Both the position numbers and the translations under genes were made by a program. 64,000 bases of DNA from IMG/VR virus record IMGVR_UViG_3300033068_001142, positions 48,262-112,261 of that record; one strand, 5' to 3'. Position 1 is the first letter of the stretch. Every line of letters begins with the position of its first letter. Source of the stretch: a virus. Taxonomy: Duplodnaviria > Heunggongvirae > Uroviricota > Caudoviricetes. The notes beneath the pieces were generated by a model that did no database searches, was not told where the DNA came from, and was given only the letters and a program-made list of their open reading frames with translations. This document shows, one piece after another, positions 1-62,544 of the stretch.

Positions 1-1851
1 ATCAATTTCTTCTAAGGAGGCGTTAGGAGGAATAGATATCATGGTTGCCCAATCATAACCAATATCAGAAACTGCTTGGTTTTGAGTTACTTGACCTTCC
101 ACAAAAGGTTGTTCCATTATAGGTACTATCATATTATTAACCCACTCTATGTAAGGGGCTTCATCTGTAATTTCAATATATATTGAGTCATAGATTGTAG
201 AGATGATTTTAATATGGTCTTGCAACTTCCATTCGTCTATATGATGATGTAACTCATTGATTGTAAGTAACGTTAGAATAGACCAGAACTGAGAGCAGCT
301 GTTAGTGATTGTTCTAATGTCTTTTGAGGGGTTTGAGGACTTAATATAACAACCCAAACCTATATGAAGCTTTTTATCAGCGATGACAGTAGGCATAACA
401 TAAGACTCTCTAAACCTAGTTACAGAAGGGTATAGTTCATTATGATATCGATTAAATATGGTCTCAGCTTCTTCTAACGTACATTTGATTGAAGAAGCTA
501 CTTTGGCAGGATATGCCCCATACTGAAGTCCAAACGATGGGCCTTTACCTTTCTGTCTAATGGCTTTTAGTTCAGGAGTTTCTTCAAGTTTAGATGCATA
601 TAACTTAGCATCTGTTGATAGGTCTCCTGTAAGTTCAATATACTTGCTGATCTCCTCTCTAAAGTAGTATAAGCTATTAACACAATGCCCGTCTAGGTCG
701 TCTTCATATAACTTAATTAAAGTTTGCTCTTTTGCTAGATTTGCGATCACTCTGTTCTCTAAGGCAGAATAATCTATAGCTAGTATTATCTTACCTTCGG
801 GAGCTTTGAAGCATTTTTTTATTGGTTTTGCAAATTTAGACCCAGTAGAAGGCATATTAAGAAGATTGGGACCAGAACTGGTAAGTCTAAAGGTTTTTGT
901 TCCAAATAATTTTAAATTACCGTAAAGTCTGTCGTTTATAGTATATAGGTAAAAGGCATTAATAAAATTATTTTTGATAATAGACCCTGTTGAATAGTCA
1001 ATTAAGGACTGAAATAAGGAGAGTTCATCATCGGATTTAGCTAAATCTTTGAGAGCTTCTATGTTGTCTCTGTCCCAACTGTACTTGTTTTTGGGTTCAA
1101 TTGGTTCAGGTTTTCCATATTTTATATGAGCGTTTAATGCTCGTTCGTACTTTATGTAGGCATCGGTTAGCTTTTCAGACTCGTACCCAAGCAGGTCTGT
1201 TAGTAGTTCGTGCTTTTGGTCAGGACTTGCTGGATTGAATTGAGGGTACTCAATTGAAGTTAGGTTGTTTATGTTGTCGTAAAATTTACGATTATGTATT
1301 TCAGCTTTGTGTGCTGCATACAGGTTCATGGCTTGAATTGCAAATGTGTTAGTAGGGCTGATGTTACCATTTAGCAGGAGAGAGAGTGCTAAGTGGTCTT
1401 GTGACGGCTTTTTGATTTCTTTTGCAGGCCATTTTGGTATTCCAGTTGGTAGTAACTCGTCTGGGGGTTTGATGTCTTTGTCTTTGATGTAGTGGTGCAT
1501 GAAGTAAGAGCGATGGTCAGGGTTTTTACAGTCGAACGGTTTGAGGAAGTGTTCTGGTGGTTTAATTTTTGCTTGTTGTTCATGCAAGTACGTCTTGGTT
1601 AAATGGTTGTAACGAATTGCTAGGTAGTCTTTAACTATCGGATTTGCAGCTAGGTCAGAGGCTACTTTAGCTAATGTTGTGTCTAGGTTTGCTTCTAGTT
1701 CTTGCACTTTTTGCATGTCAATTGGAAGACCGTTGTGCATTATGCGAACGGTATCTTTGATTAAGTGCTTAGCTACGGTTTCATAGAAGTAGCCGTCAGG
1801 AGGACTGACGGTGCTAGGTTCTGGTGCTGGTAAAAGTTGCCAAGGTCTCAT
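1..1851 (-). CDS. DNA polymerase family A (Pol I-like) polymerase domain; partial, C-terminus lies beyond position 1
   Basis: Absent from the ORF track because it runs off the window. Manual minus-strand translation from ATG at 1851 (ATGA overlap with the upstream stop) is open to position 1. It contains LAIDYSALENRVIANL (motif A), RQKGKGPSFGLQYGAYP (motif B, RxxxKxxxFGxxYG) and IYDSIYIEI (motif C). There is no N-terminal 3'-5' exonuclease domain. Confidence 0.8.
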   Translation of the reverse strand, partial: MRPWQLLPAPEPSTVSPPDGYFYETVAKHLIKDTVRIMHNGLPIDMQKVQELEANLDTTLAKVASDLAANPIVKDYLAIRYNHLTKTYLHEQQAKIKPPEHFLKPFDCKNPDHRSYFMHHYIKDKDIKPPDELLPTGIPKWPAKEIKKPSQDHLALSLLLNGNISPTNTFAIQAMNLYAAHKAEIHNRKFYDNINNLTSIEYPQFNPASPDQKHELLTDLLGYESEKLTDAYIKYERALNAHIKYGKPEPIEPKNKYSWDRDNIEALKDLAKSDDELSLFQSLIDYSTGSIIKNNFINAFYLYTINDRLYGNLKLFGTKTFRLTSSGPNLLNMPSTGSKFAKPIKKCFKAPEGKIILAIDYSALENRVIANLAKEQTLIKLYEDDLDGHCVNSLYYFREEISKYIELTGDLSTDAKLYASKLEETPELKAIRQKGKGPSFGLQYGAYPAKVASSIKCTLEEAETIFNRYHNELYPSVTRFRESYVMPTVIADKKLHIGLGCYIKSSNPSKDIRTITNSCSQFWSILTLLTINELHHHIDEWKLQDHIKIISTIYDSIYIEITDEAPYIEWVNNMIVPIMEQPFVEGQVTQNQAVSDIGYDWATMISIPPNASLEEID

Positions 1852-2054
1852 GGCAGTTTCTTTGGTTTTAAGATGTGGTATTCGTTTAAAAGAGAAAGTG
1901 ATATGGCATGAGTTGGTCTTGACTTTAACCATTCATAGCGGTTAGAAATGTCATTAATAGCTTTGTGGAAGAAGACTTGTTTATTAGGGAGTAACTCGAA
2001 AAGAAGAGTAATACCAGTACGATCTTTTACCTCTCGATGATAGTAGAATTTCAT
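1848..2054 (-). CDS. Small protein of the LLKP-tail family (ends ...HILKPKKLP)
   Basis: 68-aa ORF whose stop overlaps the polymerase ATG. The C-terminal ILKPKK motif is shared with at least 14 other small ORFs in this window. Confidence 0.5.
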   Translation of the reverse strand: MKFYYHREVKDRTGITLLFELLPNKQVFFHKAINDISNRYEWLKSRPTHAISLSLLNEYHILKPKKLP

Positions 2055-2057
2055 TAG

Positions 2058-3146
2058 TTACTCCTTTGGGTTGCCATTGTGGTCGCAGTCTCTTAGCCCT
2101 ATTCCTACTGGTTTTAGTGGGATGCCTTTTTTAGATAAGACTTCGTACTCAATTTTGTAAAACTTGTCTCTGTAATGAGTCTCAAAGTTAGCTAAGATTG
2201 CTTTACGTTCTGAGTCTGTACCTTTTGGTTTGACTTTGAACTCTTGTTGGTCAGGTGTAATGCAAGTGAATACTGGGTGACCGTTTTTGTCGATGGAGTA
2301 GGATGTGATTTCGTATTCAGCGTCGTTAGTTTTTTTGTACTTAAGTACTTCTGATGAACGGTGGTTGAATAGGTATTTGGCGTCTAGGTTGTAAATTACA
2401 GTACCTTCGTAGGATCTTGCCATACAACGGTTGTAGTGGCTTTCAATGTCAGCCTCTGTATCACAAATTACTCCAGTTAGGAAGCAGACTTTGTAATATT
2501 CGTAGGTTGAGAAGATGGAAGACAGTTTCTTGTTACGTTCTTGGTAGGTATCAGCTAAGAACGGTGCTTCGAATATGCAGAACATTAGTTGGTTTGACAG
2601 TTCTTTTGGTTTTTTAACTGCAGAGATGATGTCTTCTAGTGGTGTGTTAGGTATGTAAAGTTCTCCGTTTAAGCAAGTTGTGTTCAGCTTTTTCATTAAG
2701 CTTTTGATCCCATCTTCCAAGTGCGGGATTTGGGGAAATGCGTCTCCACCTCTTGAGGTTAGTGTTAGTGTGTCGTCTTTTAGCCAGTAAGTACCATTTA
2801 CTCCATTAAGCTTTGGAGTGGAGATGCAAGGAAATTTTACTAAGTGTTTATTTTCTTGGTAGGGTTTTACTTTTTGAGGTAGTAAGGTTTCGGTGTCACA
2901 TTCGATTGAGAGGCTGTAACCAGATTTAAGTTTGGCATTCCACTTTGATTGGGCTTCAAGTTCTGCTTGTTGAGCTGGTGTGGTTTCATTGGCTTTGCCA
3001 ATGTTTTTACCGTAGCAAGTTGTATGGTAGGACTGTAGCTTTCCGTTTAGCTGTCCTTGAGTTACTATTATTATGTTGTCAGTTACTGTTACAGAGTATT
3101 GTTGGATTGCTCCTGTTTTAGTTTTTTTGTATAGGGTTGGTGTCAT
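2058..3146 (-). CDS. ATP-dependent nucleic-acid ligase (DNA-ligase-like nucleotidyltransferase)
   Basis: Covalent nucleotidyltransferase motifs: I KLNGVNG (KxDG with N at the D position), III LNGELYIP, IV EGTVIYN, V LKYKK. The likely start is the ATG at 3146, preceded by AGGAG. The track ORF extends to 3200 on upstream in-frame codons that overlap the exonuclease stop. Confidence 0.7.
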   Translation of the reverse strand: MTPTLYKKTKTGAIQQYSVTVTDNIIIVTQGQLNGKLQSYHTTCYGKNIGKANETTPAQQAELEAQSKWNAKLKSGYSLSIECDTETLLPQKVKPYQENKHLVKFPCISTPKLNGVNGTYWLKDDTLTLTSRGGDAFPQIPHLEDGIKSLMKKLNTTCLNGELYIPNTPLEDIISAVKKPKELSNQLMFCIFEAPFLADTYQERNKKLSSIFSTYEYYKVCFLTGVICDTEADIESHYNRCMARSYEGTVIYNLDAKYLFNHRSSEVLKYKKTNDAEYEITSYSIDKNGHPVFTCITPDQQEFKVKPKGTDSERKAILANFETHYRDKFYKIEYEVLSKKGIPLKPVGIGLRDCDHNGNPKE

Positions 3147-3148
3147 GG

Positions 3149-3430
3149 TTACTCCTGTATGTAGTTTTGTAGCTCGTTCCATAAGGCGAAGGTTGCACAT
3201 GCGTCAATCGCTGCGTAGTGTAGGACGTGCTCTTCGTACATTTGAGATTGGTTGAAGTCGTCAGCAGAAACTGCCCAAGCTCCGTACTTGTAGCCCATTA
3301 GGTGTTTAAGACCTACTAGTGATTTTTGGTTATCTACATCGTTTAGTATGGTTTTAGCTAAGATCTGAGAATCTTCGAAGTCTTTTGGGAACTTTTGAGT
3401 ATGGTAGTAGACATGTTTTAGGTCGAAACT
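3149..3430 (-). CDS. DnaQ-like 3'-5' exonuclease, exon 2
   Basis: Manual translation gives SFDLKHVYYHTQKF...VLHYAAIDACATFALWNELQNYIQE*. This continues the Exo II motif (HNA|SFD) across the splice and contains Exo III (H-x-A-x-x-D-A). It has no ATG, so it is not in the ORF track. Confidence 0.75.
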   Translation of the reverse strand, partial: SFDLKHVYYHTQKFPKDFEDSQILAKTILNDVDNQKSLVGLKHLMGYKYGAWAVSADDFNQSQMYEEHVLHYAAIDACATFALWNELQNYIQE

Positions 3431-4495
3431 CGTTTATATTCAACAGAAGTCGTTAATTTCTGCCGGTTCTCAGTAAGTATTTACATGAACTCCTGCATGT
3501 TTCCATGCAGACTAGACTATATCAACATCTCAAAAAGAGATGGAACCTGTTTCCTTCCACTTGGAAGTACGAGCATTTCAGCTCTAGTCGTTGGACATTT
3601 ACAGCATAATTGCTGATTTAGTAACAGATTGCCCTCGTCTTTACGTTAGGGGTTTCCTGTTTTAAGGTTCTTTAGACATGAAATCGCTTTCATGAATGCC
3701 TATACTTGATAAAAATTTAACAGTTGTTTTATTAGTTGGAAATACTATTTCAGAATCGGATAGTAAGTTATTATTAGAATGTGGCCAATTCATTAATTTT
3801 ACAAAAGAGTCGTAAGCCTTTGCTGCTTCTATTGCTGATTTAAATGATCCTATTCCGTAATGTTTATGCTCGTAATTTATATGAGCTACCCATAGTGTAT
3901 CATGTATTTTAATTATACCTTTATAACCGGTAGTATTAGTTTTTTTGATTGTACGTTGATTTACTATTTGTATAGAATAATTAACCCATCTACAGTTAGA
4001 TGGTTCATAGTTACCGTCGTTATCTTTACGGTCTATAGTAAGTCCCTCTTGATACCCGTTAGAGATAGCCCAATCATAAAAAGCGTCAAATGAGTTTATC
4101 CATTCTTCACACATAGTGATATTTTTACTAAGGTATGATACTGATCTAGAATCTGTACATTTTAACTTAGTTTTAGTATCTGCCCAAATTCTATAAAGTT
4201 TATGGTTTCTGTTTGGTTTTTTATTTGATGTTCCGTTACATCCTTTACAAAATAATTGATTTTGTGATTTAGTTGTAACTACTGCATCAAAGTGGGATAA
4301 ACAGTTTGTACATTCGAATGTTGCCATTCTTACTTTTTTGTAATAATTTTCCGTTGGTTTTTTCATTCCAAGATCTTTTATGACTTTCATTTTGAAAGTG
4401 TATTCTGTTAAAGGTTTTAGTGCTGCCATAATAATGCTCCTTATATGTTTTAATAAGTATAGCATAATTATGCCAAAATGTCAAGTATTTAGTTA
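3431..4495 (-). ncRNA. Group I intron (IA, T4-like core) interrupting the exonuclease gene; carries an HNH endonuclease ORF
   Basis: Exon 1 ends GCU, followed by an in-frame UAA. The 3' part carries Q-like AAAUCAGCAAUU, R GUCCAACGACUAGAG, S UGAUAUAGUCUAGUCUG and AAUUAACGACU 17 nt before the terminal G. Splicing restores the Exo II motif ...VWHNA|SFDLKH. Confidence 0.75.
3662..4465 (-). CDS. Intron-encoded HNH homing endonuclease
   Basis: 267 aa with an HNH_3-type motif ...DRKDNDGNYEPSNCRWVN... It lies entirely inside intron 1 on the same strand. Confidence 0.75.
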   Translation of the reverse strand: MLYLLKHIRSIIMAALKPLTEYTFKMKVIKDLGMKKPTENYYKKVRMATFECTNCLSHFDAVVTTKSQNQLFCKGCNGTSNKKPNRNHKLYRIWADTKTKLKCTDSRSVSYLSKNITMCEEWINSFDAFYDWAISNGYQEGLTIDRKDNDGNYEPSNCRWVNYSIQIVNQRTIKKTNTTGYKGIIKIHDTLWVAHINYEHKHYGIGSFKSAIEAAKAYDSFVKLMNWPHSNNNLLSDSEIVFPTNKTTVKFLSSIGIHESDFMSKEP

Positions 4496-4882
4496 AGCGT
4501 TGTGCCAGACTTGTTTTATTGGTGTTGTAACTAGCCAGTTTAAGGTGATGTCTCGCATACGTGTGTCTGTGAAAATGATTACGTATGCAGTTGTTTCTGA
4601 TGTTGCTATGGAGCAGTGTGTCATCCTAACGAGTGATGGATGTGAAATACCAGAAGATAGAATGGCTTGGTTTGTTTTATGGTAAGCTAATGAGTTGGGT
4701 GGTAGAGCTGCAAGTTTTAGTTTTAGTCGTTCTTTTTCCTCGTCAGTGTACTTGGATGCAGTTTCAAAGTCACAAGCGATTATTGGGTAGGTTTTTGCAA
4801 TGTCTTGTAGCGTTTGAAGGAGTAGTAATTGGTTAGTTATTACAGTGTAAGTTACTGTTGTTGAGGTAGTCAATGTTTCCAA
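4496..4882 (-). CDS. DnaQ-like 3'-5' exonuclease, exon 1
   Basis: Exo I motif IIACDFETAS. The exon ends ...IKQVWHNA, the first half of the Exo II H-N-A-x-F-D motif, and is immediately followed by a stop inside the intron. The start is an apparent TTG with an AAGGA RBS. Confidence 0.75.
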
Positions 4883-5108
4883 GTTCTGTCCTTAATTGTA
4901 TTTTTGGTTCAACGTAGCGGTATTCTAGTTGTACAGCGTTTAGTAATACTTTGTGAGCTCTTGTACAAGCGACATAGTAAAGATTTAGTTCAGTTTGTTC
5001 TTCCTTTGTTAGTTGGTCGTATGTGATGTTTTTAGAAGCCATAGAGATTTGTACCATTTTTACGGCATTGTTTAAGTCATCAGCAATGTAAACCTCGTCA
5101 TACTCAAG
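4833..5108 (-). CDS. SF1 (UvrD/Dda-like) DNA helicase, exon 2
   Basis: It begins LEYDEVYIADD... immediately after motif V and contains YVACTRAHKVL, the SF1 motif VI. The junction ...TAHSTKG|LEYDEVYI matches the UvrD pattern TLHSAKGLEF. Confidence 0.75.
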   Translation of the reverse strand, partial: LEYDEVYIADDLNNAVKMVQISMASKNITYDQLTKEEQTELNLYYVACTRAHKVLLNAVQLEYRYVEPKIQLRTELGNIDYLNNSNLHCNN

Positions 5109-5389
5109 CATTATGTTCCGTATAAGGCGTTAATTTATACGTGCAGCATTACCTGCAACTATACATTACTGTATAGATCAGACTATATCTTCATCCCAGT
5201 AGGATGCTCCCCGTTTCCACCCACTTGGGTGTACGTGCAAAAGCACTAGTCGTTGAACGTTCCTCGTTATGAGGCTTCGCTGCTGATTGTCCTAGGAGTA
5301 GGATGTCCCAGCAATTAGAGGAGTTTTGATACACATTACTGTGTAAAAGGGCCTATGTAGTTTTATTATGAGTCACTCAACTTAAATTA
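5109..5389 (-). ncRNA. ORF-less group I intron (281 nt) in the helicase gene
   Basis: Exon 1 ends GGU, followed by UAA. Core elements read on the minus strand: P UAAUUGCUGGGACA, Q CAAUCAGCAGCG, R GUUCAACGACUAGUG, S GAAGAUAUAGUCUGA, and AAUUAACGCCU 16 nt before the terminal G. Confidence 0.8.
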
Positions 5390-6625
5390 ACCCTTAGTTG
5401 AGTGAGCTGTTCCTAAATGGAAAGAGCTTGTTAGTCTTTCGTGTTTTTTTGCTTCTTCGTAACAACTAAGTACTCCAGTAACTCTGTATTTTAGAATTAG
5501 ACTGATTGCTGTTGATACTTGCTGGTCTTCTTTATAGAGGTCTTTTAAGTAGTTTAAGTGGTTTCTGTACTTTAAAATTAGTTCTCTATCTTCGTAGTAG
5601 TCGTTGATGTCTTGTTGAATGCTTTTGAATTCAACTGGCATGAAGCCTTTGTTTTTAGAAAGACAAAGTGCTTTCGGTAATGAGAAGATATCATCAGCTG
5701 AACGAGTTAAGGTGTACGGGACTTTTAGTTCGTTTAGTTCCATCATTTTAGAGATTAGTGTTGTGTTTGTTCTTGCAATGAAGGCTTGGGTTTTTGGTTT
5801 GTCTGGTGACTGTTCAGTTCCGTTGAATACCATTTTAGGATCTATGTAAGTTTTACAGTAGCTGTTGACTCTTTCTGCAATTTGAGGTGAAACTCTAAAT
5901 GACTTTGACATTGGGAATTCTACACCAGTTGATTTCATTACGTTGAAGCAGTTAATGGTGTGGTTAAAGCTGTAAATGTTTTGACGAGAATCTCCGACTA
6001 AGAGTTTCTTGGCAGAAGGGATTAGTTTAAAGATTTCTAGTGTTACTGGGTTGATGTCACCAGCTTCGTCAAGAGCAATGAAGTCAAATGGTTGGTAAGA
6101 GATGTGGTCGGTAGCTAAGAGTATATGGAAGTATTTTAGGTAAAATTCGTGAGTACATTCGATGTCACCACTTTCCATTTGATGGATATAGGATTCTAGT
6201 AGTAATAGTTCTTTTTCTGTTATGGGTACTTTTTCTTCTTTGCAGAAGTCTGAGAAATGTAAGTGTTTAGATAGAAAGTACTCTTTTAAGTAGTCTACGA
6301 GTTCACAACGTCTTTCGTATGGAATGTCTTGGTTGATGTTACGGTAATTGAATTTGCCGAGTGTTAAGTGGTTTTTTACTACCGTTGGTCTGTAAGCTAA
6401 TGAATGTACGGTACAGCAAGTTACTGTTTTGGGGAACTTGGATGCAGCTTCGGTTGCAATGCTTTTATTATAAGCTAAGTAAAGAGCGTTAGTAGGGTTA
6501 AGTGCTTTTGCTATTGATACTAAGAGCGCTGTTTTTCCTGCCCCTGCTACGGCATTTACTTTTACGTAGCCATCATTAGATTTTACATGATTTAGTATTT
6601 GGTGTTGTTCGTCTGTTAATTTCAA
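5390..6625 (-). CDS. SF1 (UvrD/Dda-like) DNA helicase, exon 1
   Basis: Walker A AVAGAGKTALL, motif Ia TVHS, motif II ALDEAGD, motif III LLVGDSRQ, motif V TAHSTKG at the extreme end of the ORF. Confidence 0.75.
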
Positions 6626-6760
6626 TAAAAATCCTTAGTGAAGATATTAAAGGTATTAATACCTTTGTAAAGATTTATAGTAGCTAGGAGAGAGATTAGC
6701 TACTATAAAGTTGAAGGGGAGTTAAAAATACGGACTTATACCTGAAGGATGCCGTGAGTG

Positions 6761-7492
6761 TTACTTTCTAAATAAGCTGCCTGCAGGTTTTACTTGTGAC
6801 GCTGGAGCTGTTGATTTAGTAGCTGTAGCATCGTTTGATTTAGCCTTTTTCCAAGCTTCTACATCTTCAGCTGTTAAGTCGTCTAAGTAACGAACAGCAT
6901 CTGCGTAACTTGCTTTGTCTTTTTCAAGTTGAACACCAACTTCAGAGTTGTTAACGATTTCTCTAACAGATGCACCGTCTTCTGCTCTATAAAATGCTAC
7001 TGGTACCATTGATTTTCTGATTTCTTTAGTTGTAGCGTTGATTGAGTATTCTTCTTGTAATCTGATTTTGATTGGTAAGTCTGTGAATTGAGTTATGATG
7101 TTGAACTCTTTTGCTTTTGCTTCTTTACCAACTTTGAATGTTTCTTGTTCTACTTCTAATTCGTCATTGTCACCTAAACCTGCAATAACTCCTAATGAGT
7201 TGATTAATTGCATACCAATTTTTAATGGTTCGTTTTTTGTTGATGTGATGTATGGTCCGTAGATTGTTTGAGCATTACCGTTATACTCGATGTTAAAGTT
7301 AACAGATTGAGCTCCGTTTTTAGATACTTCTACCGAAGCGAATTTGATGATTACGTCATAGATACCAGACTTGCTGATGTATGATGAACCTCCGCTTGAT
7401 TGAATAGCGTCTGAGTTAGTTGAGATTTTAAATAATTTCATTGTGGTCCTTTTTGAGTTGAGATGTATGCAAAATATTGCATAAGAGAGCAC
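6761..7492 (-). CDS. Hypothetical protein (possible ssDNA-binding or annealing accessory protein by position)
   Basis: 243-aa ORF between the helicase and a RecA-like ATPase. No motif was recognised. The real start is probably the internal MKLFKIS. Confidence 0.3.
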   Translation of the reverse strand: MLSYAIFCIHLNSKRTTMKLFKISTNSDAIQSSGGSSYISKSGIYDVIIKFASVEVSKNGAQSVNFNIEYNGNAQTIYGPYITSTKNEPLKIGMQLINSLGVIAGLGDNDELEVEQETFKVGKEAKAKEFNIITQFTDLPIKIRLQEEYSINATTKEIRKSMVPVAFYRAEDGASVREIVNNSEVGVQLEKDKASYADAVRYLDDLTAEDVEAWKKAKSNDATATKSTAPASQVKPAGSLFRK

Positions 7493-8255: not shown

Positions 8256-8537
8256 TCAGTTTAACGCCCTGGGTTTTAGGAGTTTAATGTTTGGTAATTG
8301 GGTTATTGTAAATCTTTTTCCAATAAGGAAATGGTTCCAAAATCCTTGTATGTGTTCAGCGTAATTATCCGGGGATTTAATTATGTATCCTTGTATTTCA
8401 TCACGATCAGGACGTGCAGGTTCACTGTGTGTAGGATCATATAAAAACGTGTAGTTGTCTAGTCTTAGTTGAAGACCTTGTTTAGCTAAGGTTAAGAATT
8501 CGTCTTTAGTAAAAGTTTTTCTTTGGTTTAGTTGCAT
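8256..8537 (-). CDS. LLKP-tail family small protein (N-domain: KDEFLTLAKQGL type)
   Basis: 93 aa, ends ...QLPNIKLLKPRALN. The N-terminus is paralogous to 8528..8815, 8806..9093 and 26582..26878. Confidence 0.5.
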   Translation of the reverse strand: MQLNQRKTFTKDEFLTLAKQGLQLRLDNYTFLYDPTHSEPARPDRDEIQGYIIKSPDNYAEHIQGFWNHFLIGKRFTITQLPNIKLLKPRALN

Positions 8538-8815
8538 TTACGTGTCCTTAAAAGTTTAAGTTTTGGTAGGGTTACAATAGTAAAGGTGTTAACACTGTCA
8601 AAGAAGTACCAACAAGAGTTAATTGGTACTTCAAGTTCAATGTCTAATAGTTGTATTGTTTGTAAGTATCCTTGGATTGATCCAGTCCTGCTGAAGTTTT
8701 TGTCAGAGTTTTGCTTGTAGTAGTACTTAGAACCTGTTCGTGAGACTACTAGTCCAGCTTTTGCTAGTAGTAGGAACTTTTGTTTTGATAGTGTAATTAC
8801 GTCTCCTACTTGCAT
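8528..8815 (-). CDS. LLKP-tail family small protein
   Basis: 95 aa, MQVGDVITLSKQKFLLLAKAGL..., ends ...LPKLKLLRTRKCN. Confidence 0.5.
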   Translation of the reverse strand: MQVGDVITLSKQKFLLLAKAGLVVSRTGSKYYYKQNSDKNFSRTGSIQGYLQTIQLLDIELEVPINSCWYFFDSVNTFTIVTLPKLKLLRTRKCN

Positions 8816-9093
8816 GTTTTTGCCTTTAGTAGGAAGATGTTTGCAGGTCTTACTACTACAAGTGTTTCGCTAGTAAGAATGCTCCAAAGCCCGTAAATGT
8901 GTTCTACTGGTTTTAGGTCAGATTCTCCGTAGCAGTAGTTCTGTACACCGCCGTAACTAGATTCTGCTTGGATGTGAAACGGTGCGTAGAAAAAGTAAGT
9001 ATCTTGGTCTTTAACTTTTACTGCTAGGCCTTGTTTGGCTAGTCTAATAAATTGCTCTTTTGTTAGTTTAAGCTCGGTTCCGACTGGGTACAT
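8806..9093 (-). CDS. LLKP-tail family small protein
   Basis: 95 aa, ...LKLTKEQFIRLAKQGL..., ends ...ANIFLLKAKTCK. Confidence 0.5.
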   Translation of the reverse strand: MYPVGTELKLTKEQFIRLAKQGLAVKVKDQDTYFFYAPFHIQAESSYGGVQNYCYGESDLKPVEHIYGLWSILTSETLVVVRPANIFLLKAKTCK

Positions 9094-18600: not shown

Positions 18601-19274
18601 AGTCCAAAGGCAGTGTTTATTTCCAAGATGTAAAGGTTTTGGTCTTCATCTTCGATTATGTCTACGGCACCATAAGTTAGGTTTAACGCTGTTAAGGATT
18701 TAGTAGCTAAGTCTGGTAGAATTACTGGGAATTCAATGTCGTTTCTAGCGAATATGTAACCGTTAGCACAGTTCCAGATGTATGGTGATCTTTCACCTTC
18801 GAAGTCACGTTTTTTAAGTTTCTTTTTCATGTCTACAACACGGTTGTTGACTACAATTGCACGGTACTCATGTTTTTTCTCAATGAACTTAGTGTATAGT
18901 GGTGCGTTTGGTAGCTCAGATGGCTTACCAACTACGATACCTTCACCTGAGTGACCTGTTACTGTTGTACGAGCTAAGTAGGTTGTTTCTTCTTCAAGTT
19001 CGGTTTTGCTGAAATAGAAGTCTGGTGTAGGAAGCTCAGCTGCTTTTAGTTTTGTAAAGGTTGTGATTTTGTTAGCTGCATCTTTTACTGATTGAAGTGG
19101 GTTAAGGTAACGAGAGTTGTGGACTACGTTAACGTTACCCCAGTTTATGATAGTGTCTGTTGGTTTACCTCTAAATTTGCTGTGTCTGTGTTGGATACGT
19201 TTGATGTTTAGGTAATCAGCTAAGGCTTTTGCAGAGTTTGAAGGTTTGTAAGACTGAACTCTTAAACGTCTCAT
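18549..19274 (-). CDS. ATP-grasp family ligase (RimK/glutathione-synthetase-like)
   Basis: ...GEGIVVGKP..., ...YGAVDIIEDEDQNLYILEINTAFGL..., the C-terminal ATP-grasp signature. The 5' 50 nt of the track ORF overlap 18298..18600, so the real start is probably an internal Met. Confidence 0.6.
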   Translation of the reverse strand: MRRLRVQSYKPSNSAKALADYLNIKRIQHRHSKFRGKPTDTIINWGNVNVVHNSRYLNPLQSVKDAANKITTFTKLKAAELPTPDFYFSKTELEEETTYLARTTVTGHSGEGIVVGKPSELPNAPLYTKFIEKKHEYRAIVVNNRVVDMKKKLKKRDFEGERSPYIWNCANGYIFARNDIEFPVILPDLATKSLTALNLTYGAVDIIEDEDQNLYILEINTAFGLCGTTTQLVGDAIKELL

Positions 19275-20683
19275 CTATAAACCTTGATTTCTGCAATTTC
19301 TGAAGTGTTGATTGTGTAGTTTCCAGAACCTCCAGAAGATCTAACACCTCTAAAGTCTAAGCAAGTTGCACTTTTTTGGAAACTGAAGTGAGATGTGTCG
19401 CCTTGTACTGTAAACGAAAGTCCGTCTTTTAGTACTATTTGTAAAATGTTTGGTAAGTCTTTAACTGTTAGTTTAGAGAACGGTAAAGTTATCTCTTTTG
19501 GTTCTTTGTAGACTACTACGTTTTGGATGTCTTGTTTGAATTCAGTTACTGCTGTATTTAGCTGAGGGTAAGTTGTGATGTGTTTTGCAACGTACTTGAA
19601 GTAGTCTTTTAATGTAACTCTTTTAGCTGCTGGTCTTGTGTATTCAATTAATGAGTCTAAGAATTGGATATAAGTTTTTAAGCTGTTTAAGTCTGTTGTA
19701 GAGTTGAAGATTCTAACTTCGATTGTTGCTTCGTTACCTTCGTTGATTACATTGTATCTGTCCATTGAGATTGGTGCGTTATCTTTAGAGAACACTTTAC
19801 CAATTGGTCTGAATGGGCAATAGTTGTTTAATTTTCTTGTTGCTATGTGCTCTAACAAGTCTTGTGATGAGTATAGCAAGAAGTAGAACATTGCGTAGTG
19901 TTTTTTGTCTTTGAATGCCGTTCTACTGATGTGTACGTGACATCCGTTTGACTCAGACGTTTCAACTGATGTAGTTGCAACTGTGTTTAAGAATGACTTT
20001 TCAGCCATTAACTCTTCGAATGTGTGAGGGTGTGATACTACCTCAGCTCTAAATTGACCACCAGATATTGATGAGTCTGCTTTTAAGTAAACTTCACGTG
20101 AATGTTTTGCCATTACTTTTAGCGCTTCTTTTTTAGAGTTGAATCCGTATTCTAGTTCAATGCCGTAGAACTTTTTGTTAGGTGATTCACCTATAAATGA
20201 AGGAGTTGGTTTGTAACTGTGAGGGTTAACTTTCACTAAGTCTTCTTGACATGAGTCACATAAGTGGAATTCATTTGGAGTATCAATGCTAGCTCCACAG
20301 TTTACACATGAATGGTCGTTTAAGATCATTGTGTTAGTTGTAATGTTAAAGAACATGTTTGGAGTTGTTGTTTTAATGTTTTCAGACTGTAAGAATGGTT
20401 TAGTGTGGTTAAACTCGTAAACAGTGCTATTAATGTTTATACCTTTTATCCAAGATTCGTGGATTGGGTATTCTACGTTTTGGTGTTTAACAAAAATTTC
20501 AACACAGAATGCGTCTTCATTTTTCTTGAAAGTTGTTAATTCTAACTCTCTTGGTGCTGTATCTAAAGCTGAGTCATAAATAACGTAATCTTTACCTTTA
20601 AAGGTTTGTTCTGTTTCAAAGTCGTAAACTTCTTCTAATGTTTGATTAATTTTAGTTTTACTTTTTAATATTAGTTTTATCAT
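19271..20683 (-). CDS. Zn-ribbon + glutamine-synthetase-fold carboxylate-amine ligase (GCS2/YbdK-like amidoligase)
   Basis: N-terminal CVNCGASIDTPNEFHLCDSCQ. The C-terminal half has FYGIELEYGF (GxExE strand) and NGCHVHISR (G-x-H-V-H), as in YbdK/GCS2-type amidoligases. Confidence 0.5.
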   Translation of the reverse strand: MIKLILKSKTKINQTLEEVYDFETEQTFKGKDYVIYDSALDTAPRELELTTFKKNEDAFCVEIFVKHQNVEYPIHESWIKGININSTVYEFNHTKPFLQSENIKTTTPNMFFNITTNTMILNDHSCVNCGASIDTPNEFHLCDSCQEDLVKVNPHSYKPTPSFIGESPNKKFYGIELEYGFNSKKEALKVMAKHSREVYLKADSSISGGQFRAEVVSHPHTFEELMAEKSFLNTVATTSVETSESNGCHVHISRTAFKDKKHYAMFYFLLYSSQDLLEHIATRKLNNYCPFRPIGKVFSKDNAPISMDRYNVINEGNEATIEVRIFNSTTDLNSLKTYIQFLDSLIEYTRPAAKRVTLKDYFKYVAKHITTYPQLNTAVTEFKQDIQNVVVYKEPKEITLPFSKLTVKDLPNILQIVLKDGLSFTVQGDTSHFSFQKSATCLDFRGVRSSGGSGNYTINTSEIAEIKVYR

Positions 20684-20711
20684 AATTCTCTCTCCTATGA
20701 TGTTTTAAGTT

Positions 20712-20990
20712 TTAGTGTTTCCACAGCCTATCTGTAATTTGTTGAAAAGTAGTAGTTTCTAGTTTACCGTTTAAGAATACTGATTTTAATAAGCTATTGT
20801 TTTCTTCTTCCCAACTACAGTTATCCTTTAGTGTCAGTTTGTCATCTATTAATGTTACTTGTAATAAGCCTTGTGCAGATTTTTTAGTTCCATCATCTGT
20901 TATAGGGTCTTTTTGAATGTTAATAGGATTATCATTAATTATAGCAAATGTAGCTTTCATAGCAAATCCAAAAGTATCCCTAGTATTGTA
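20712..20990 (-). CDS. nadV: Nicotinamide phosphoribosyltransferase (NAMPT/NadV), exon 2
   Basis: ...YNTRDTFGFAMKATFAIINDNPINIQKDPITDDGTKKSAQGLLQV...LLKSVFLNGKL... aligns from memory with the C-terminus of NAMPT (…[28 protein letters not shown]…LLHTVFKNGKV…). The exact 3' splice site is ±a few codons. Confidence 0.65.
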   Translation of the reverse strand, partial: YNTRDTFGFAMKATFAIINDNPINIQKDPITDDGTKKSAQGLLQVTLIDDKLTLKDNCSWEEENNSLLKSVFLNGKLETTTFQQITDRLWKH

Positions 20991-22308
20991 CTGGTATGTA
21001 TATGCACATTGTTACTTAGGTATTTTTCCGTTAAGTACGTCCTCAATAAAAAGCTCTGTCGATTCTTTAGTTGAAGTTCTTAATTCTTTATAGTCTAAAA
21101 GAATGCTTTGTTCTAATAGGTATGCATTATAAAGTGTAGTTTCAAAAGTATCAATTATGCTAATGTCACATTTGAACTTAGACTTTAATGCATTTATGCG
21201 TTGTTTTAAATTTATAGTTATTCCAATTTTGAAGTATTGCCCTATTTGTAAATAATATAGGATAGCGGGTTTGTTTTTAAGATCATCACTTCTACTAAAT
21301 ATTGTCTCACAATACCCACCTGGTAGTTTGCCTTCTAGACATAGTGCATCTATTGTACATTTAGGACAACCTTGTCCAGCTATGTGTTTTTGGGCTGATT
21401 TTTTAAATTCTCCATGCACTTCACAGTAACAAGTAATGATTGACTTTTTGTTTATGTAATTACTACATTCGTAAGTATACTTACCGTTATATAAGTTTGT
21501 GGCATAATCAATAAATTCCTTAAACGTATGTGTTTTGATATTGGCTGATGATGCTATACCACATTTAGGACAACCTTTTGTCACATTTTTGCTTAATAGT
21601 GTATGCGGAGATGTTGAGTGTTCCCCATGTACTGGACATACTAAAGTTACTTTAGAATTTATACCAGTATAGTTATCTACTTTGAACTCAAAATTAGAAA
21701 ATTTATGTAAAAGTTTACTTTCTATTTCTTCCCATGTGTATTTTAATGGTTTAAATCCTGTCCGTCCTTTAGATTTTTGAGATCTCCTTAAAATTGCACA
21801 CTCCGGACATCCGTATATAGATGTTAAGTGTTTATCGGGGTTTTGTTCAAATTCACCATGGGTAGGACAAGTAATTATTGATTTTGTTTTAGCATTAGTG
21901 TATATAAACTTACTATAATCATACTTGCCATTATACTTTTTATTTGCTTTTTCTATAAATTTTTCTTTGTTTGTCATATTGTATCTCCTATCACTTATTG
22001 ATAAGTATACAATCTTTGTACTTAATAAATACTTAAGTAACAATGTGGACTATATCATCACCCTATAAAATAGGGGCTCACTGCTTCGACCCTGACAGGG
22101 GCCTACTCTCTTTCGAGATAGTCTCTGAACCTTCTCCTATACGGAGCTTGGCTGCGGATTGACCAATATTATAGATTTTTACTGTACTGTAGATAGTTAC
22201 TCTACACCCTATGCTATATTTCTATGTATAGTTAGTACTATAATATTAACGGAAGTTCCCGCAATTCAATGAGTTTTCGATATGGATTACTCCATAAAGG
22301 GGCCATTA
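20991..22308 (-). ncRNA. Group I intron in the NAMPT gene, carrying a Zn-ribbon/T5orf172 (GIY-YIG superfamily) endonuclease-like ORF
   Basis: Exon 1 ends UUU, followed by UAAUGG. Core elements: P CAUUGAAUUGCGGGAAC, Q GGUCAAUCCGCAGCC, R AGGUUCAGAGACUAUCUCGAAAG, S GAUGAUAUAGUCC, all 5' of the ORF. The NAMPT ORF stops in the middle of the conserved GSGG region. Confidence 0.7.
21012..22043 (-). CDS. Intron-encoded endonuclease-like protein: 3x Zn-ribbon repeats + C-terminal T5orf172 domain
   Basis: Three repeats of CPxHGE(F/H)x(13-16)GCPxC. The C-terminus ...ILYYLQIGQYFKIGITINLKQRINALKS matches the T5orf172/GIY-YIG-like motif. The probable true start is the internal ATG (MTNKEKF), preceded by AGGAGA. 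Confidence 0.6.
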   Translation of the reverse strand: MLLKYLLSTKIVYLSISDRRYNMTNKEKFIEKANKKYNGKYDYSKFIYTNAKTKSIITCPTHGEFEQNPDKHLTSIYGCPECAILRRSQKSKGRTGFKPLKYTWEEIESKLLHKFSNFEFKVDNYTGINSKVTLVCPVHGEHSTSPHTLLSKNVTKGCPKCGIASSANIKTHTFKEFIDYATNLYNGKYTYECSNYINKKSIITCYCEVHGEFKKSAQKHIAGQGCPKCTIDALCLEGKLPGGYCETIFSRSDDLKNKPAILYYLQIGQYFKIGITINLKQRINALKSKFKCDISIIDTFETTLYNAYLLEQSILLDYKELRTSTKESTELFIEDVLNGKIPK

Positions 22309-23727
22309 AAATGTTAACCCAATGCCTAATACTATGTTATCAGAAGCAAACTTTTTGTCTGCTAATTTTTTAAGGATAGTGTCTTGTCTTTCTAATGTGA
22401 TTGAGTCTCCGTAGATTAAGCCTACGTATGGTGATAAAGTTTTGTAACCTTTATCGTTTGTAGTGCCTCCAAATACGTCCCAAAGACACTTGATTGCCCC
22501 TTTAATTTGAGCTTCTGAAAGTAACTCAAAAGTATCCTCATTAATAACTTTGAAGCAGCCTTCTTTACAAGAGATGTAGAAGCTGCCCATATAAGTATGT
22601 TCTGCTGCTTCCTCTAATGTTAAAGTTGGAAACGATTGGTTTATTTTAACGCCGCAAATAACATCTACTGGATTACCTGAGTCAGGTCTAAAGACTACTT
22701 TAGCTAATCCTAGAGCATTTGGTTGACGAGATTCAATGATTGGTTTAAGTACTTTTATACCATATTCCATCATATACCAGAAGTCGAATGAGTCAGCAAC
22801 TATTGAGATAATTCCAGTTGGGTATAACTCTGTTATTAAGTACCAAATGTAAGCAATTTCTGCTAGTCTTTGAGTGTTTATGTGTGTACTGTCATATTGA
22901 AGCATGTCAATTGATAGGATTTTGTTAGCAGGAGTTACCCATTTACCAGTAATATCTAGTGATTGTTGAATGTTAGCAATGTTAGTACACATTACACTAT
23001 GTTCAGTTGCTGGAACAGATGTTCCTACTAATGACTTAGTGTAATCAGCAAAATAGTAGTCTTTTGCTCCTTGGATTGCTAAACAGGTGTCAGTTCCTAC
23101 AAAAGAGAATAGGTGTGATATTTGGTTTTTGTAGGCATCTTCCCTGTTTGATAGTCCTCTAGCAGAGAAATCATGTCCTTGAAATATTACAAATCCTTTG
23201 TCTGCACCAGTTAATTCTGCGTAGTGTTCAAAAGTTTTTCGGTATTCGTAAGCTATAGTAGCGTTTGTTGACATTTTCCATAACTCTGATGACATTACAG
23301 TTTCGATGTAGTTAACTAACCAACTAAATTTTGGGTGCGTATTTACTATAGTTAGTACTGGTATCTTAGCTGGAACTAGTGTGCCTTCTGGTAAAGATTT
23401 GATTTGTAATGGTAGGTATCCTAAGTCATGTAGTTCTTCTACGTGGTCAACTGGTATTGAATCTGGTCCAAGTGTTGAATCCATGAATAGTTTATACGAT
23501 TCTACTACTTCTTTTTTAGGTTTGTTAAAGAATCCTTCATTCCATTCTTTAATTAAGTAGTCCATGATGAAGGCTTGTAACCCTACCCATACAAGCTTAT
23601 CTGATGAGCCTTTATATCTTTTGAAAGATCTTGGTGTAAAGTTAGAGTAGACTAATGTAGTGTTTTGAGGGTACTGTCTTCTATGGTCAGCTTTATAGAA
23701 GTCTATAGCTAATAGTGGGTTAAGCAT
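22309..23727 (-). CDS. nadV: Nicotinamide phosphoribosyltransferase (NAMPT/NadV), exon 1
   Basis: MLNPLLAIDFYKADHRRQYP... is the characteristic NAMPT N-terminus. The ORF ends ...NIVLGIGLTF, truncated at the conserved GSGG block. Confidence 0.75.
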
Positions 23728-26898: not shown

Positions 26899-26975
26899 TG
26901 GAGCGCATAGAGGAATTCGAATCCCCATAGTCAAGCTTCGCGGGCTTGGTCATTGTCCAGTTATGATATATGCGC
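26899..26975 (-). tRNA. tRNA (77 nt with encoded CCA); anticodon loop CCGCGAA, apparent anticodon GCG (Arg) with C at position 33
   Basis: Manual cloverleaf on the minus strand. Acceptor GCGCATA/TATGCGC (7 bp), U8, D stem TCAT/ATGA with GG in the loop, anticodon stem CAAGC/GCTTG, 5-nt variable loop, T stem GGGGA/TCCTC, T loop TTCGAAT, discriminator T, CCA. Confidence 0.6.
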
Positions 26976-60408: not shown

Positions 60409-62544
60409 ATGGTAAAGAAAAGTGAGCTATTAAATAGACTTAAGGACGACCTTAGGGCAGCAGACCGTTTAAGGCAGGAGTGGTTTAATAAGATACATGA
60501 ATGGAGAAACGAGACTCAAGGGAAACCTTACGGGAATGAAGTAAAAGGAAAATCTAAAATAGTATCAGCCGATATTCGTAAACAATTAGAATGGATGCTG
60601 CCTACATTAGCTGATCCGTTTTTGAGTACACCAGATATTATTAAATGTAATCCAGTAACGTTTGAGGATGTTCTAGCAGCTAGACAAAATGAGTTGATAT
60701 TGAATACTCAGTTTTGTAGAAAGTTTCCAAGATATAATTTCTTGATGAAAGCATTAAAAGTATTAGCTACTGAAGGAACATTAGTTATTCAGACTGGTTG
60801 GGATTATGAAGATGAAGAAGTTGATACTATGGTAGAAACTGTTGGTATTCATCCTATAACTGGTGAAGATACTATTGTTATGAGTAAAGAGAAAGTAACT
60901 AGGATTAAAAAGAATCAACCTACTGCTGTTGTATGTAGAAATGAAGACATATATTTAGATCCTACTTGTATGGATAATATGGATAAATGTCAATTTGTTA
61001 TTCATAGATATGAGACAGATTTAAGTACATTAAAAGCTGATGGTAGATATAAAAATCTAGATAAAGTTGCTATGGAAGATGGTGGTAAGTATGATTATGG
61101 ATTTATTCAGCAAGATCATACATTCTTCAAGTTTAGTGATAAAGCTAGAAAGAAAATGCTGGTATATGAATACTGGGGTAATTATGATATTGATGAAGAT
61201 GGATTTGCTGAACCGATTGTGTGTGCTTGGATAGGTAACACGATTATTAGATTGCAGAGTAATCCGTATCCAGATAAAAAACCTCCGTTTATCGTTGTCC
61301 CATTTAATGCTGTTCCATTCCAAATGCATGGAGATAGTTTAGCTAGCATAATTGGAGATAATCAGAAAGTTAAGACTGCTATTATCAGAGGTATTATTGA
61401 TAATATGGCACAAAGTAATAATGCACAAGTTGGTATGAGAAAAGGTGCGTTAGATATGACTAATAGGAAGAAGTTCCTAGAGGGTAAGAACTTTGAATAT
61501 AATGGAACACCTAATGACTTCTGGCAAGGAAGTTATAATTCAATACCAAGTAGTGTGTTTGACATATTGACGGTTATGAATAATGAGATTGAGAGTCAGA
61601 CTGGGGTTAAGAGTTTTAGTGGTGGAATAACTGGTAGCTCATTAGGTAGTACAGCTACAGGAGCTAGAGGTGCATTAGATGCAACTGCAACTAGAAGGAT
61701 TAGTTTAGTTAGAAATATTGCAGAGAATTTGATTAAGCCCTTGATGAGAAAATGGATGGCTTATAATAGTGAGTTCCTAGAGGAAGAAGAAATTGTTAGG
61801 ATAACTAATGATGAGTTTGTTCCAATCAGAAGAGATGACTTGAATGGTAATATTGATATAGATATTAGTATTAGTACAGCTGATGATAATGCAGCTAAGT
61901 CACAAGAGTTGAGTTTCCTACTACAAACAATGGGACCAAATCAAGATTTTGAGATTAATAAGATGATAATGGCAGAGATCGCTAGATTAAGTAGAATGCC
62001 TGAATTAGAAAAACAAATTAAAGCACATCAACCTCAACCAGATCCAATGGAAGAGCAAGCTAGACAGTTAGAGATGGCTAAAATGCAGTTAGAATTAGAA
62101 CTAATGAAAGCTGAAATTGCTGATAAACAAGCTAGAGCTGGTGAAAATGTTATTGATGCTGAAGTTAAGAAAGCTAAAATGCAAGTTGAGATGGCGAAAG
62201 CTAGAAAACTTGGAAGTGAAGCTGATGGTTTAGATTTAGATTTCCTAGTTAAAAATGAGTCTGGAATAGGTAATGATACTAAAGACCAAGATAAGTATGC
62301 TCATGAGATGAATATGAAAATGATGGATAGACAACATAAATTAGAAGATGCCTCTATAAATAGAGAACATGATTTAAATAAGTTTATTATCGATAGACAG
62401 TTCAAAGATCAGGAAGCTGAGAAAAATAGAGAGCATGAGTTAATGAAGTTATCTGCTGAAAGAGTACATCAAGTTCAAGATGATGATGTTGCTAGAGAGC
62501 ATGAGTTAGAAAAATTGAATAGACAAAGAAGAGGAGATAAATAG
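60409..62544 (+). CDS. Portal protein (T7 gp8-like head-to-tail connector) with a C-terminal coiled-coil/REHEL-repeat extension
   Basis: The N-terminal LNRLKDD...LPTLADPF region, the mid DIDEDGFAEPIV and GDNQKVKTAIIRGIIDNMAQSN blocks parallel T7 gp8 (recalled). The C-terminal ~150 aa are Glu/Lys/Met-rich with 3 REH(E/D)L repeats. Confidence 0.7.
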   Translation: MVKKSELLNRLKDDLRAADRLRQEWFNKIHEWRNETQGKPYGNEVKGKSKIVSADIRKQLEWMLPTLADPFLSTPDIIKCNPVTFEDVLAARQNELILNTQFCRKFPRYNFLMKALKVLATEGTLVIQTGWDYEDEEVDTMVETVGIHPITGEDTIVMSKEKVTRIKKNQPTAVVCRNEDIYLDPTCMDNMDKCQFVIHRYETDLSTLKADGRYKNLDKVAMEDGGKYDYGFIQQDHTFFKFSDKARKKMLVYEYWGNYDIDEDGFAEPIVCAWIGNTIIRLQSNPYPDKKPPFIVVPFNAVPFQMHGDSLASIIGDNQKVKTAIIRGIIDNMAQSNNAQVGMRKGALDMTNRKKFLEGKNFEYNGTPNDFWQGSYNSIPSSVFDILTVMNNEIESQTGVKSFSGGITGSSLGSTATGARGALDATATRRISLVRNIAENLIKPLMRKWMAYNSEFLEEEEIVRITNDEFVPIRRDDLNGNIDIDISISTADDNAAKSQELSFLLQTMGPNQDFEINKMIMAEIARLSRMPELEKQIKAHQPQPDPMEEQARQLEMAKMQLELELMKAEIADKQARAGENVIDAEVKKAKMQVEMAKARKLGSEADGLDLDFLVKNESGIGNDTKDQDKYAHEMNMKMMDRQHKLEDASINREHDLNKFIIDRQFKDQEAEKNREHELMKLSAERVHQVQDDDVAREHELEKLNRQRRGDK

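Follow-up and report, generated by a model that had tools for sequence, protein, structure and literature searches.

The stretch of DNA considered here (the window) comprises 64,000 nucleotides (nt) of a tailed phage genome, positions 48,262 to 112,261 of IMG/VR record IMGVR_UViG_3300033068_001142. On its minus strand, a stand-alone gene for a DEDDy proofreading exonuclease of this uncultured phage is interrupted by an element that is very probably a mobile, self-splicing group I intron with a homing-endonuclease gene. The boundaries of the element are exact, the corresponding site is empty in a near-identical phage, the intron RNA has a covarying fold, removal of the element restores a conserved protein, and its open reading frame (ORF) of 255 amino acids (aa) belongs to a protein family with a conserved set of residues. 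Particular to this intron are its site in the Exo II motif of a separate exonuclease gene, the location of the ORF in the P1 loop, an Arg-type nuclease module, and a series of natural variants in relatives. The feature coordinates are collected in Table 1.

Insertion boundaries and the interrupted exonuclease

The insertion is delimited by an intron-less relative (L001, a Logan contig from SRR12487023) that is 97.7% identical to window 5108..4496 and 95.2% identical to window 3430..1. Because this near-identical sequence runs continuously across the junction, with its positions 613/614 corresponding to window 4496/3430, the intervening segment is a clean insertion of 1,065 nt. An earlier interpretation made from the letters alone (the sequence-only reading) had placed an intron at 3431-4495, and the alignment to L001 shows that placement to be exact to the base. 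On the minus strand, exon 1 ends in ...CAA GTC TGG CAC AAC GCT at 4496 and is directly followed, from 4495, by TAA; the intron-opening stop is UAA here and UGA in some copies. The intron ends in ...TATAAACG at 3431, after which exon 2 starts with AGT TTC GAC from 3430 and stays in frame (AGT TTC GAC CTA...) to the stop at 3149-3151. Exon 2 has neither a start codon nor a ribosome-binding site of its own. The spliced junction is expected to consist of CACAACGCT joined to AGTTTCGAC. The exon joint ...QVWHNA/SFDLKH... (slashes mark the insertion point here and below) falls within Exo II as had been proposed, with H127-N128-A129 upstream and S130-F131-D132 downstream, so that the Asn of the motif is separated from its catalytic Asp by the intron.

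The joined product is 222 aa long (129 + 93), not 223 aa as first counted, and it contains the Exo I (DFETAS, residues 38-43) and Exo III (HYAAIDA, residues 200-206) segments that the sequence-only reading had picked out. It matches PF01612 (DNA_pol_A_exo1) with an E-value of 7.6e-9 and 36 bits (cut-off 23.6 bits); with single exons, exon 1 gives nothing and exon 2 only 3e-3. The joined product also matches phrog_25155 at 2.4e-47. There are 207 database homologues of the joined protein, many of them about 220 aa long and unbroken at the junction (the best is 99% identical and 222 aa), and 26 homologues with identities down to 43% align without an indel across W-H-N-A/S-F-D. Residues D38, E40, D132, Y201 and D205 are invariant in these 26 homologues and constitute the DEDDy pattern, which is defined by Exo I D-x-E, Exo II N-x2-3-(F/Y)-D and Exo III Y-x3-D together with a profile and fold match, all of which are found here. 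H200 is variable (H, E, K, L or R), and the H-x4-D arrangement in the window arises by chance.

Structure comparisons point the same way. An AlphaFold model of the joined protein has a predicted local distance difference test (pLDDT) score of 91.6, and its top 50 Foldseek matches are all DEDDy enzymes, including NrnC/diDNase, Klenow exonuclease, WRN, RNase D, Rrp6 and the apicoplast Pol; no DnaQ or RNase T structure is among these 50. A profile of the exonuclease family matches an RNase D-type PDB chain, and in Pfam the joined protein matches PF01612 only, RNase_T (PF00929) giving no match even at E <= 10. The host enzyme is a DEDDy 3′-5′ exonuclease of the Pol A / RNase D type and not a DEDDh enzyme, a DEDDh/DnaQ classification being ruled out by the variable H200, the silent PF00929 and the DEDDy-only structure matches. 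The term 'DnaQ-like' used by the sequence-only reading holds only in the sense of the broad DEDD superfamily; the DEDDh subclass is contradicted by Y201/D205, PF01612 and the Foldseek results. That reading had also declared that it would fall if the joined sequence failed to score as a DEDDh exonuclease, and taken to the letter this is the outcome, since there is no PF00929 match and the enzyme is DEDDy instead.

The exonuclease gene follows that of a UvrD-like helicase and is itself followed by genes for an ATP-dependent ligase (2058..3146) and a Pol A polymerase, the last of which extends from 1851 past the window end. The exonuclease is a stand-alone proofreading domain here; its counterpart in L009-L011 is part of a Pol A fusion, with the intron at the same codons. 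The nearest isolates with the exonuclease are Alteromonas AD45-type phages (podophages), in which the gene is 41% identical and uninterrupted.

The ribozyme and its open reading frame

Rfam model RF00028 matches 3493..3721 over the full model (1-253) with 78.0 bits and an E-value of 4e-18, the gathering score being 50 bits. Nine independently assembled intron copies were compared (the window, L004, L007, L009, L011, L012, L081, L082 and L084), and the final exon base U (4496) and the final intron base G (3431) are kept in 9/9 of them. Prior to alignment the ORF-bearing loops were removed, and the relatives were trimmed by a hand-guided procedure. RNAalifold predicts P2, P3, P4, P5, P7.1, P7.2, P8, P9, P9.1 and P9.2 from this alignment; one spurious helix was dropped from its structure and the P7 pseudoknot was added. 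With the edited structure, 98.9% of cells hold standard pairs and 37 of the 63 base pairs show two-sided changes. Sliding the 3′ partners by 1-3 columns left only 1-10 double-change pairs, and none of 500 shuffles reached the observed value (0/500). P7 itself is invariant in the nine copies, so it is uninformative for covariation. An RNAalifold pairing of the guide AGGC with GUCU after P7 was discarded as an artefact, because the P3/P7 pseudoknot cannot be drawn by RNAalifold. The presence of both P7.1 and P7.2 between P7 and the 3′ strand of P3 is the criterion for subgroup IA2 (PMC3428280), and from these two hairpins the intron looks like an IA2 member. In L009 (~3954..4042), the intron copy extends the P9.1 hairpin by an extra ~89-120 nt.

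P1 is proposed to form between the putative Internal Guide Sequence GGCAUU and the exon end AACGCU, with the pairs U-1·G, C-G, G-C, a C·A mismatch, A-U and A-U. The position of this candidate guide finds support in L081 and L082, where the GGCAUU-P2 block is only 40-60 nt past the 5′ splice site with a short hairpin between, and by analogy in a second group I intron in the neighbouring helicase gene, which as read by eye shares the layout (AUAG-GCCCUU-P2) and has a perfect 6-bp P1 with exon end AAGGGU. A conserved UUUUGGCAUAAUU near the 5′-end of the intron was rejected as a guide: its pairing is poorer (GGCAC in L007), it falls within the promoter spacer, and L081 and L082 lack it. The promoter-spacer sequence UUGGCAUAAUUAUGCU (4467..4479, conserved in the intron) resembles the exon end UGGCACAACGCU (4496..4508), the two being similar and not complementary; the resemblance may be a coincidence.

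The roughly 790 nt from the splice site to the guide are closed by an ACUUGA/UCAAGU stem, which makes the ORF an insert of the P1 loop. The closing stem covaries among relatives, with AAUCAGAUA and UAUCUGAUU in L009, AAUCAAAUA and UAUUUGAUU in L011, and UUAAUAAGA and UCUUAUUAA in L012 (pairing judged by eye and not counted by a tool). The final ~15 codons of the ORF (...SIGIHESDFMSKEP; 3662..3709) double as the 3′ strand of this stem, the guide sequence, P2, J2/3 and the 5′ strand of P3, and compensatory changes in P2 alter the C-terminal peptide in relatives (HESDFM, HEGDFV, HRSNPM). Because the last codons are also the guide, P2 and the P3 5′ strand, translation of the ORF and folding of the ribozyme compete on one RNA. 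Upstream of the ORF, a promoter candidate agrees with the consensus at 11/12 positions, is the top site of the 2.8-kilobase (kb) region scanned, and is kept in L004, L007 and L084; it may serve to express the ORF. A sigma-54 reading of TGGCAT-N5-TGCT was rejected by eye, its spacing being one base short.

With regard to the protein, the ORF matches PHROGs family phrog_374 ('HNH endonuclease') at 3.5e-39, and 587 homologues were found, all of which start at the same Met. Intact 255-aa homologues at 55-98% identity are present in many contigs. In comparisons with PDB sequences, phmmer aligns I-HmuI (1u3e; E 2.8e-4) to residues 123-177 and the AP2 domain of a plant protein (7et4; E 0.009) to residues 162-215. 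R134, N137, Y141, P143, N145, C146 and Q154 are invariant in 28 homologues (32-98% identity), and D133, N157 and R159 are conserved in >=90% of these. D133, N145 and N157 have their counterparts in D74, the TNLRW Asn and the VENQ Asn of I-HmuI, so that the acidic residue, the loop Asn and the helix Asn are all present. The AlphaFold model of the ORF (pLDDT 84.8) has beta strands at 131-134 and 146-149 and a helix at 151-156, followed by an AP2-like part with strands at 172-196 and then a helix at 199-213. Foldseek matches the model to AP2 structure 7et4 at E 1.8e-3 with probability 1.0; PF00847 (AP2) reaches E 0.0044 and 17.7 bits, under its 33.3-bit cut-off, and a precomputed PF00847 match is present in many ORF homologues. 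A Foldseek match to PacI at E 0.41 was discounted and is not taken as evidence, and an NCBIfam scan was uninformative. The ORF product is best described as an atypical HNH plus AP2 protein that lacks the catalytic His, one of the defining features of the HNH family. Its family matches and its AP2-type part agree with the AP2-linked, Pfam-invisible 'atypical HNH' homing endonuclease genes known from phages (PMC10448857).

Signs of mobility, alternative genes and competing explanations

The same intron with the same ORF is found at the same codon boundary in L004-L006, L007/L008, L009-L011 and L012, and the intron is also there in L081. Hosts sharing this site (GCT/) have exonucleases that are 32-83% identical to that of the window, per exon segment, and the occurrence of one intron at one site in genes with only 35-80% protein identity agrees with the suggestion of the sequence-only reading that the insertion is typical of homing into highly conserved DNA. 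Intron-plus and intron-minus alleles form pairs at 95-98% identity, namely the window with L001, and L082 or L084 with L085-L087; L004 and L002 are a further close pair. Within such pairs the junctions differ synonymously, with AGT versus TCT (both Ser) in L004/L002 and AGT versus AGC in window/L001, and L082/L085 differ by CTT TGC T/TT versus CTC TGC T/TC. These differences fit a short co-conversion or target-site polymorphism. A megablast search of 2000..7000 against 50,697 phage records gave no relative, only ~50-nt intron-core matches in Staphylococcus phages.

The core, the gene and the insertion point do not always occur in the same combination. L081 (2400..3255) and L082 (1727..2598) have the same core and guide with an empty P1 loop and carry another gene in the P6 loop, which encodes a canonical HNH_3 plus helix-turn-helix (HTH) protein of 169 aa (VNHIDGD...NN...NLE; PF13392 at 2.8e-11). 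L082 and L084 match at 97-99% identity across the exons and the intron segments that they share, their sole difference being which gene is in which loop. In L082 (1726/2599) and L084 (192/1251) the intron follows AAC CTT TGC T, 4 nt downstream of the window site relative to the codon for the Exo II Asp (AAC CTT TGC T/TT GAC versus AAC GCT/AGT TTC GAC), and this shifted site is confirmed by the intron-less L085-L087. Both insertion sites end in GCU, and U at -4 of the shifted site forms a Watson-Crick pair with the A of the guide. All four combinations of gene and site occur. One possibility for the 4-nt shift is reverse splicing into a site ending in GCU. The modular behaviour of core and gene is already known in principle for phage introns. 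A bolder proposition, which we regard as doubtful though worth stating, is that within one ribozyme lineage the core, endonuclease gene and insertion point each moved independently. If this were true, the RNA itself would pick the site by reverse splicing via its GGCA guide, rather than the protein alone, and the invariant-Arg nuclease would use a non-canonical chemistry, for example with Tyr141 in the role of the PacI loop Tyr.

In the proposed life cycle of the window intron, the exonuclease gene would be transcribed through the intron and the RNA would fold into P1-P9.2. With a guanosine cofactor, the RNA would be cut after the U of ...AACGCU and this end joined to AGUUUC, restoring H-N-A-S-F-D and the 222-aa enzyme. 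On unspliced RNA, translation would stop at the intron-opening UAA, giving a 129-aa fragment that lacks the Asp of Exo II and the whole of Exo III. The HNH-like/AP2 protein encoded in the P1 loop would probably be made from its own promoter and ribosome-binding site, and translation of its last codons and folding of the ribozyme would be mutually exclusive on any one RNA molecule. During mixed infection, the 255-aa protein would nick or cut intron-less alleles near the WHNA/SFD codons, and repair off intron-bearing genome copies would bring in the intron and a few flanking exon bases.

Several observations weigh against this account. Splicing in vivo, use of the promoter, nuclease activity and homing are what we infer, and that splicing has this standing is itself a weakness of the account. 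The proposed P1 includes the C·A mismatch, and both of its strands are invariant, hence covariation support is not possible; no better guide was located within the intron, and a perfectly complementary guide sought in five introns gave no conserved candidate. At its gathering threshold, Rfam did not report the homologous cores of L004, L007, L009 and L011, and because these went unreported the Rfam identification rests on the window copy and the manual alignment. For the same lineage, intron scans that rely on the RF00028 gathering threshold will under-count. Comparison of the window with L001 reveals no long co-conversion tract around the junction, where just three differences fall within 18 nt. 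With regard to the protein, Pfam HNH models (including HNH_3) give no match to the ORF, and Foldseek recovers no significant nuclease with its model, I-HmuI included, the AP2 part alone being significant. Arg134 (LTIDRKDNDGNYEPSNCRW) occupies the position of the general-base His (D-R as against D-H in I-HmuI, His75), and with this replacement the protein is not expected to act as a nuclease in the textbook way. The 'HNH' label of the sequence-only reading has backing in the I-HmuI alignment and the HNH PHROG families; it does not hold in the canonical sense, given the silence of the Pfam models, the invariant Arg for His, and the AP2 domain.

These properties of the protein would also suit a splicing-competent ribozyme whose ORF product is no longer a nuclease and persists as a DNA-binding relic, a regulator or a maturase-like helper, the intron being immobile or moved in trans by a different endonuclease. 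The Arg in place of the catalytic His and the silent HNH_3 model are what such a protein would show, and activity could be supplied by the canonical HNH_3 gene found in the P6 loop of relatives or by other putative homing endonuclease genes nearby in relatives (a DUF723/T5orf172-type ORF in L001). We nevertheless consider loss of nuclease function improbable. The Arg is invariant within a conserved D-R...N..Y.P.NC...Q..N.R block in the 28 diverse homologues, which argues for selection rather than decay, and Asp133 and the helix Asn, the metal-ligand positions, have been retained. In hosts that differ widely, the intron is accompanied at this one site by intact ORFs with 55-98% identity. His-Me nucleases without His also exist; PacI lacks the catalytic His and uses a loop Tyr instead (PMC5714182), and as Tyr141 is invariant here, a PacI-like role for this loop Tyr is an attractive idea suggested by the sequence.

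Two other explanations dispense with a functional intron or with the arrangement itself. The gene may have been fractured by a free-standing endonuclease cassette, its halves being separate polypeptides or the remains of a dead gene, and gene callers indeed list pieces of 129 aa and 49 aa as separate ORFs and the cassette comes with a candidate promoter and a ribosome-binding site. A fractured gene is very unlikely, however, in view of the strong covariation of the group I core, the U/G boundary nucleotides, the absence of a start codon and ribosome-binding site from exon 2, the exactly restored frame, and purifying selection on both exons in all intron-bearing relatives (35-80% identity). An assembly chimera that joins two phage variants is hardly credible: the window possibly stems from metagenomic assembly and L001 breaks exactly at an intron boundary, but independent assemblies from different projects (Logan, JGI, ENA and GenBank whole-genome shotgun) show this arrangement in at least eight further contigs. 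The mobile self-splicing intron with a homing-endonuclease gene is thus the explanation we favour.

None of these findings overturns current understanding. For annotation, they mean that the exonuclease and helicase of this phage group are miscalled as fragments unless the introns are removed, as is already the case in public calls that list the 129-aa and 49-aa pieces. In phage family A polymerase modules, the intron sites known so far are joined by one in an exonuclease motif. The empty site, the filled site, two alternative genes that each have their own loop, and insertion points that differ by 4 nt provide a natural series for the association of ribozymes with homing genes, and the ORF supplies a member of a large Arg-for-His, AP2-linked HNH-like family that can be tested for cleavage.

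Related introns, the helicase intron and genomic context

In the T4 td, nrdB and sunY introns the core and the endonuclease gene are separable, and the ORF is looped out with its own expression signals and a stop at the intron start. The td and sunY introns encode GIY-YIG enzymes, and the T4 host genes serve nucleotide metabolism. The window intron shares the separable modules, the looped-out ORF, the own signals and the stop at the start with the T4 introns; it differs from td and sunY in that its ORF is HNH-like and not GIY-YIG, and from the T4 introns in that its host gene is not one of nucleotide metabolism.

Mobile IA2 introns with HNH-family genes are known from replication genes of SPO1/SP82, T7-like phages, Pf-WMP3 and Bastille-like phages (PMC3428280, PMC11878797). 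Those in phage DNA polymerase genes include the introns of SPO1/SP82 (I-HmuI and I-HmuII), T7-like PhiI/W31 and cyanophage Pf-WMP3 (I-PfoP3I); the intron sites of phage DNA polymerase genes number at least three, that of Pf-WMP3 being in the finger subdomain, and a UAA at the intron start has precedent among IA2 introns with HNH nickases (PMC3428280). The window intron resembles these polymerase introns in its phage replication host gene, the presence of P7.1 and P7.2, the UAA start, the site in catalytic-motif codons, and an HNH-family ORF that lies within a peripheral loop and runs into the core, with a nuclease module that aligns to I-HmuI. Unlike them, it is inserted in the Exo II motif of an exonuclease that is a separate gene here, its ORF is in the P1 loop and not in P6a/P8, and its module has Arg for the catalytic His and is fused to AP2, not to NUMOD/HTH.

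AP2-associated atypical HNH homing genes were described as 'IPA-HNH' in ICP1 genomes (Barth et al. 2023; PMC10448857), a source that also cites the HNH-AP2 family of Magnani et al. 2004. The window protein is like IPA-HNH in combining an N-terminal HNH-like domain too divergent for Pfam HNH_3 with an apparent C-terminal AP2 DNA-binding domain. Unlike the ICP1 genes, that of the window is intron-borne, and the likeness is one of domain layout rather than of direct homology comparison to ICP1 proteins. Such proteins are common among phages, tblastn detecting relatives of the ORF in 693 phage records, 65 of them from Vibrio and 226 from Staphylococcus phages. With the introns of Staphylococcus Twort/K-like phages, several of which are in the terminase large-subunit gene, the window intron shares ~50 nt of P3-P5 core (~3615..3667) at 90% identity; the host gene, insertion site and phage lineage differ, and there is no DNA similarity beyond this ~50-nt stretch.

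The helicase intron splits a UvrD-like helicase within motif V (...GTAHSTKG/LEYDEVYI...), and the joined helicase of 503 aa aligns without gaps to the uninterrupted 496-aa helicase of L002. The 52.6-kb L001 contig starts (position 1) at window 5108, which is the first base of helicase exon 2. This suggests that the assembly of L001 stopped where the intron of the helicase gene ends, perhaps owing to a mixture of both alleles in the sample. Another group I intron (Rfam 61 bits) is found in L007 at 5338..5607, just upstream of a NUMOD4/HNH_3 ORF and downstream of the exonuclease region.

Table 1. Features of the interrupted exonuclease gene, its intron and the helicase intron, in window coordinates
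Feature	Position	Strand	Description
Exonuclease exon 1	4496..4882	-	TTG start at 4882, 129 codons; Exo I (D38-F-E40) inside; ends ...W-H-N-A; end fixed by intron-less L001
Group I intron	3431..4495	-	1,065 nt; opens with UAA; last base G at 3431; exact insertion relative to L001, RF00028 match, covariation
Exonuclease exon 2	3149..3430	-	93 codons and stop; S-F-D first (Exo II Asp132); Exo III Y201-x3-D205 inside
Catalytic core	3493..3721	-	P3 (3665..3670 with 3543..3548), P4-P6, P7 (3585..3589 with 3515..3519), P7.1, P7.2, P8, P9 (3493..3510); Rfam and covariation
P2 hairpin	3677..3694	-	CAUGAAA-GCGA-UUUCAUG; compensatory changes in 5/7 pairs
P7.1 and P7.2	3581..3570 and 3567..3552	-	Two covarying hairpins between P7 and P3 3′ strand
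Peripheral hairpins	3442..3490	-	P9.1 (3487..3490 with 3466..3469), P9.2 (3458..3464 with 3442..3448); both covary
Proposed Internal Guide Sequence (P1 3′ strand)	3695..3700	-	GGCAUU; invariant in 9/9 copies, immediately 5′ of P2
P1-loop closing stem, 5′ strand	4481..4486	-	ACUUGA; pairs with UCAAGU 3704..3709; overlaps -35 hexamer
P1-loop closing stem, 3′ strand	3704..3709	-	UCAAGU; pairs with ACUUGA 4481..4486
Sigma-70-like promoter (candidate)	4456..4484	-	TTGACA-17 nt-TATACT, TG before -10; ahead of intron ORF
Shine-Dalgarno sequence	4437..4442	-	AAGGAG; 7 nt upstream of ORF ATG
Intron ORF, 255 aa	3662..4429	-	CxxC...CxxC zinc-ribbon-like N-terminus, HNH-like beta-beta-alpha module, C-terminal AP2-type domain
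Second group I intron, helicase gene	5109..5389	-	281 nt, no ORF; Rfam 98 bits; starts with UAA, ends with G

Elsewhere in the window, three tandem overlapping ORFs of 93-95 aa on the minus strand (8256..9093) are similar to each other (...F..LAK.GL...) and resemble a small paralogous array. Context genes at 19271..23727 (minus strand), 26899..26975 (minus strand) and 60409..62544 (plus strand) comprise an amidoligase-like ORF, a NAMPT/NAPRTase-like ORF, a tRNA-Arg(GCG) and an SU10-type portal protein. Near 44.6 kb of the window, coding changes from one strand to the other.

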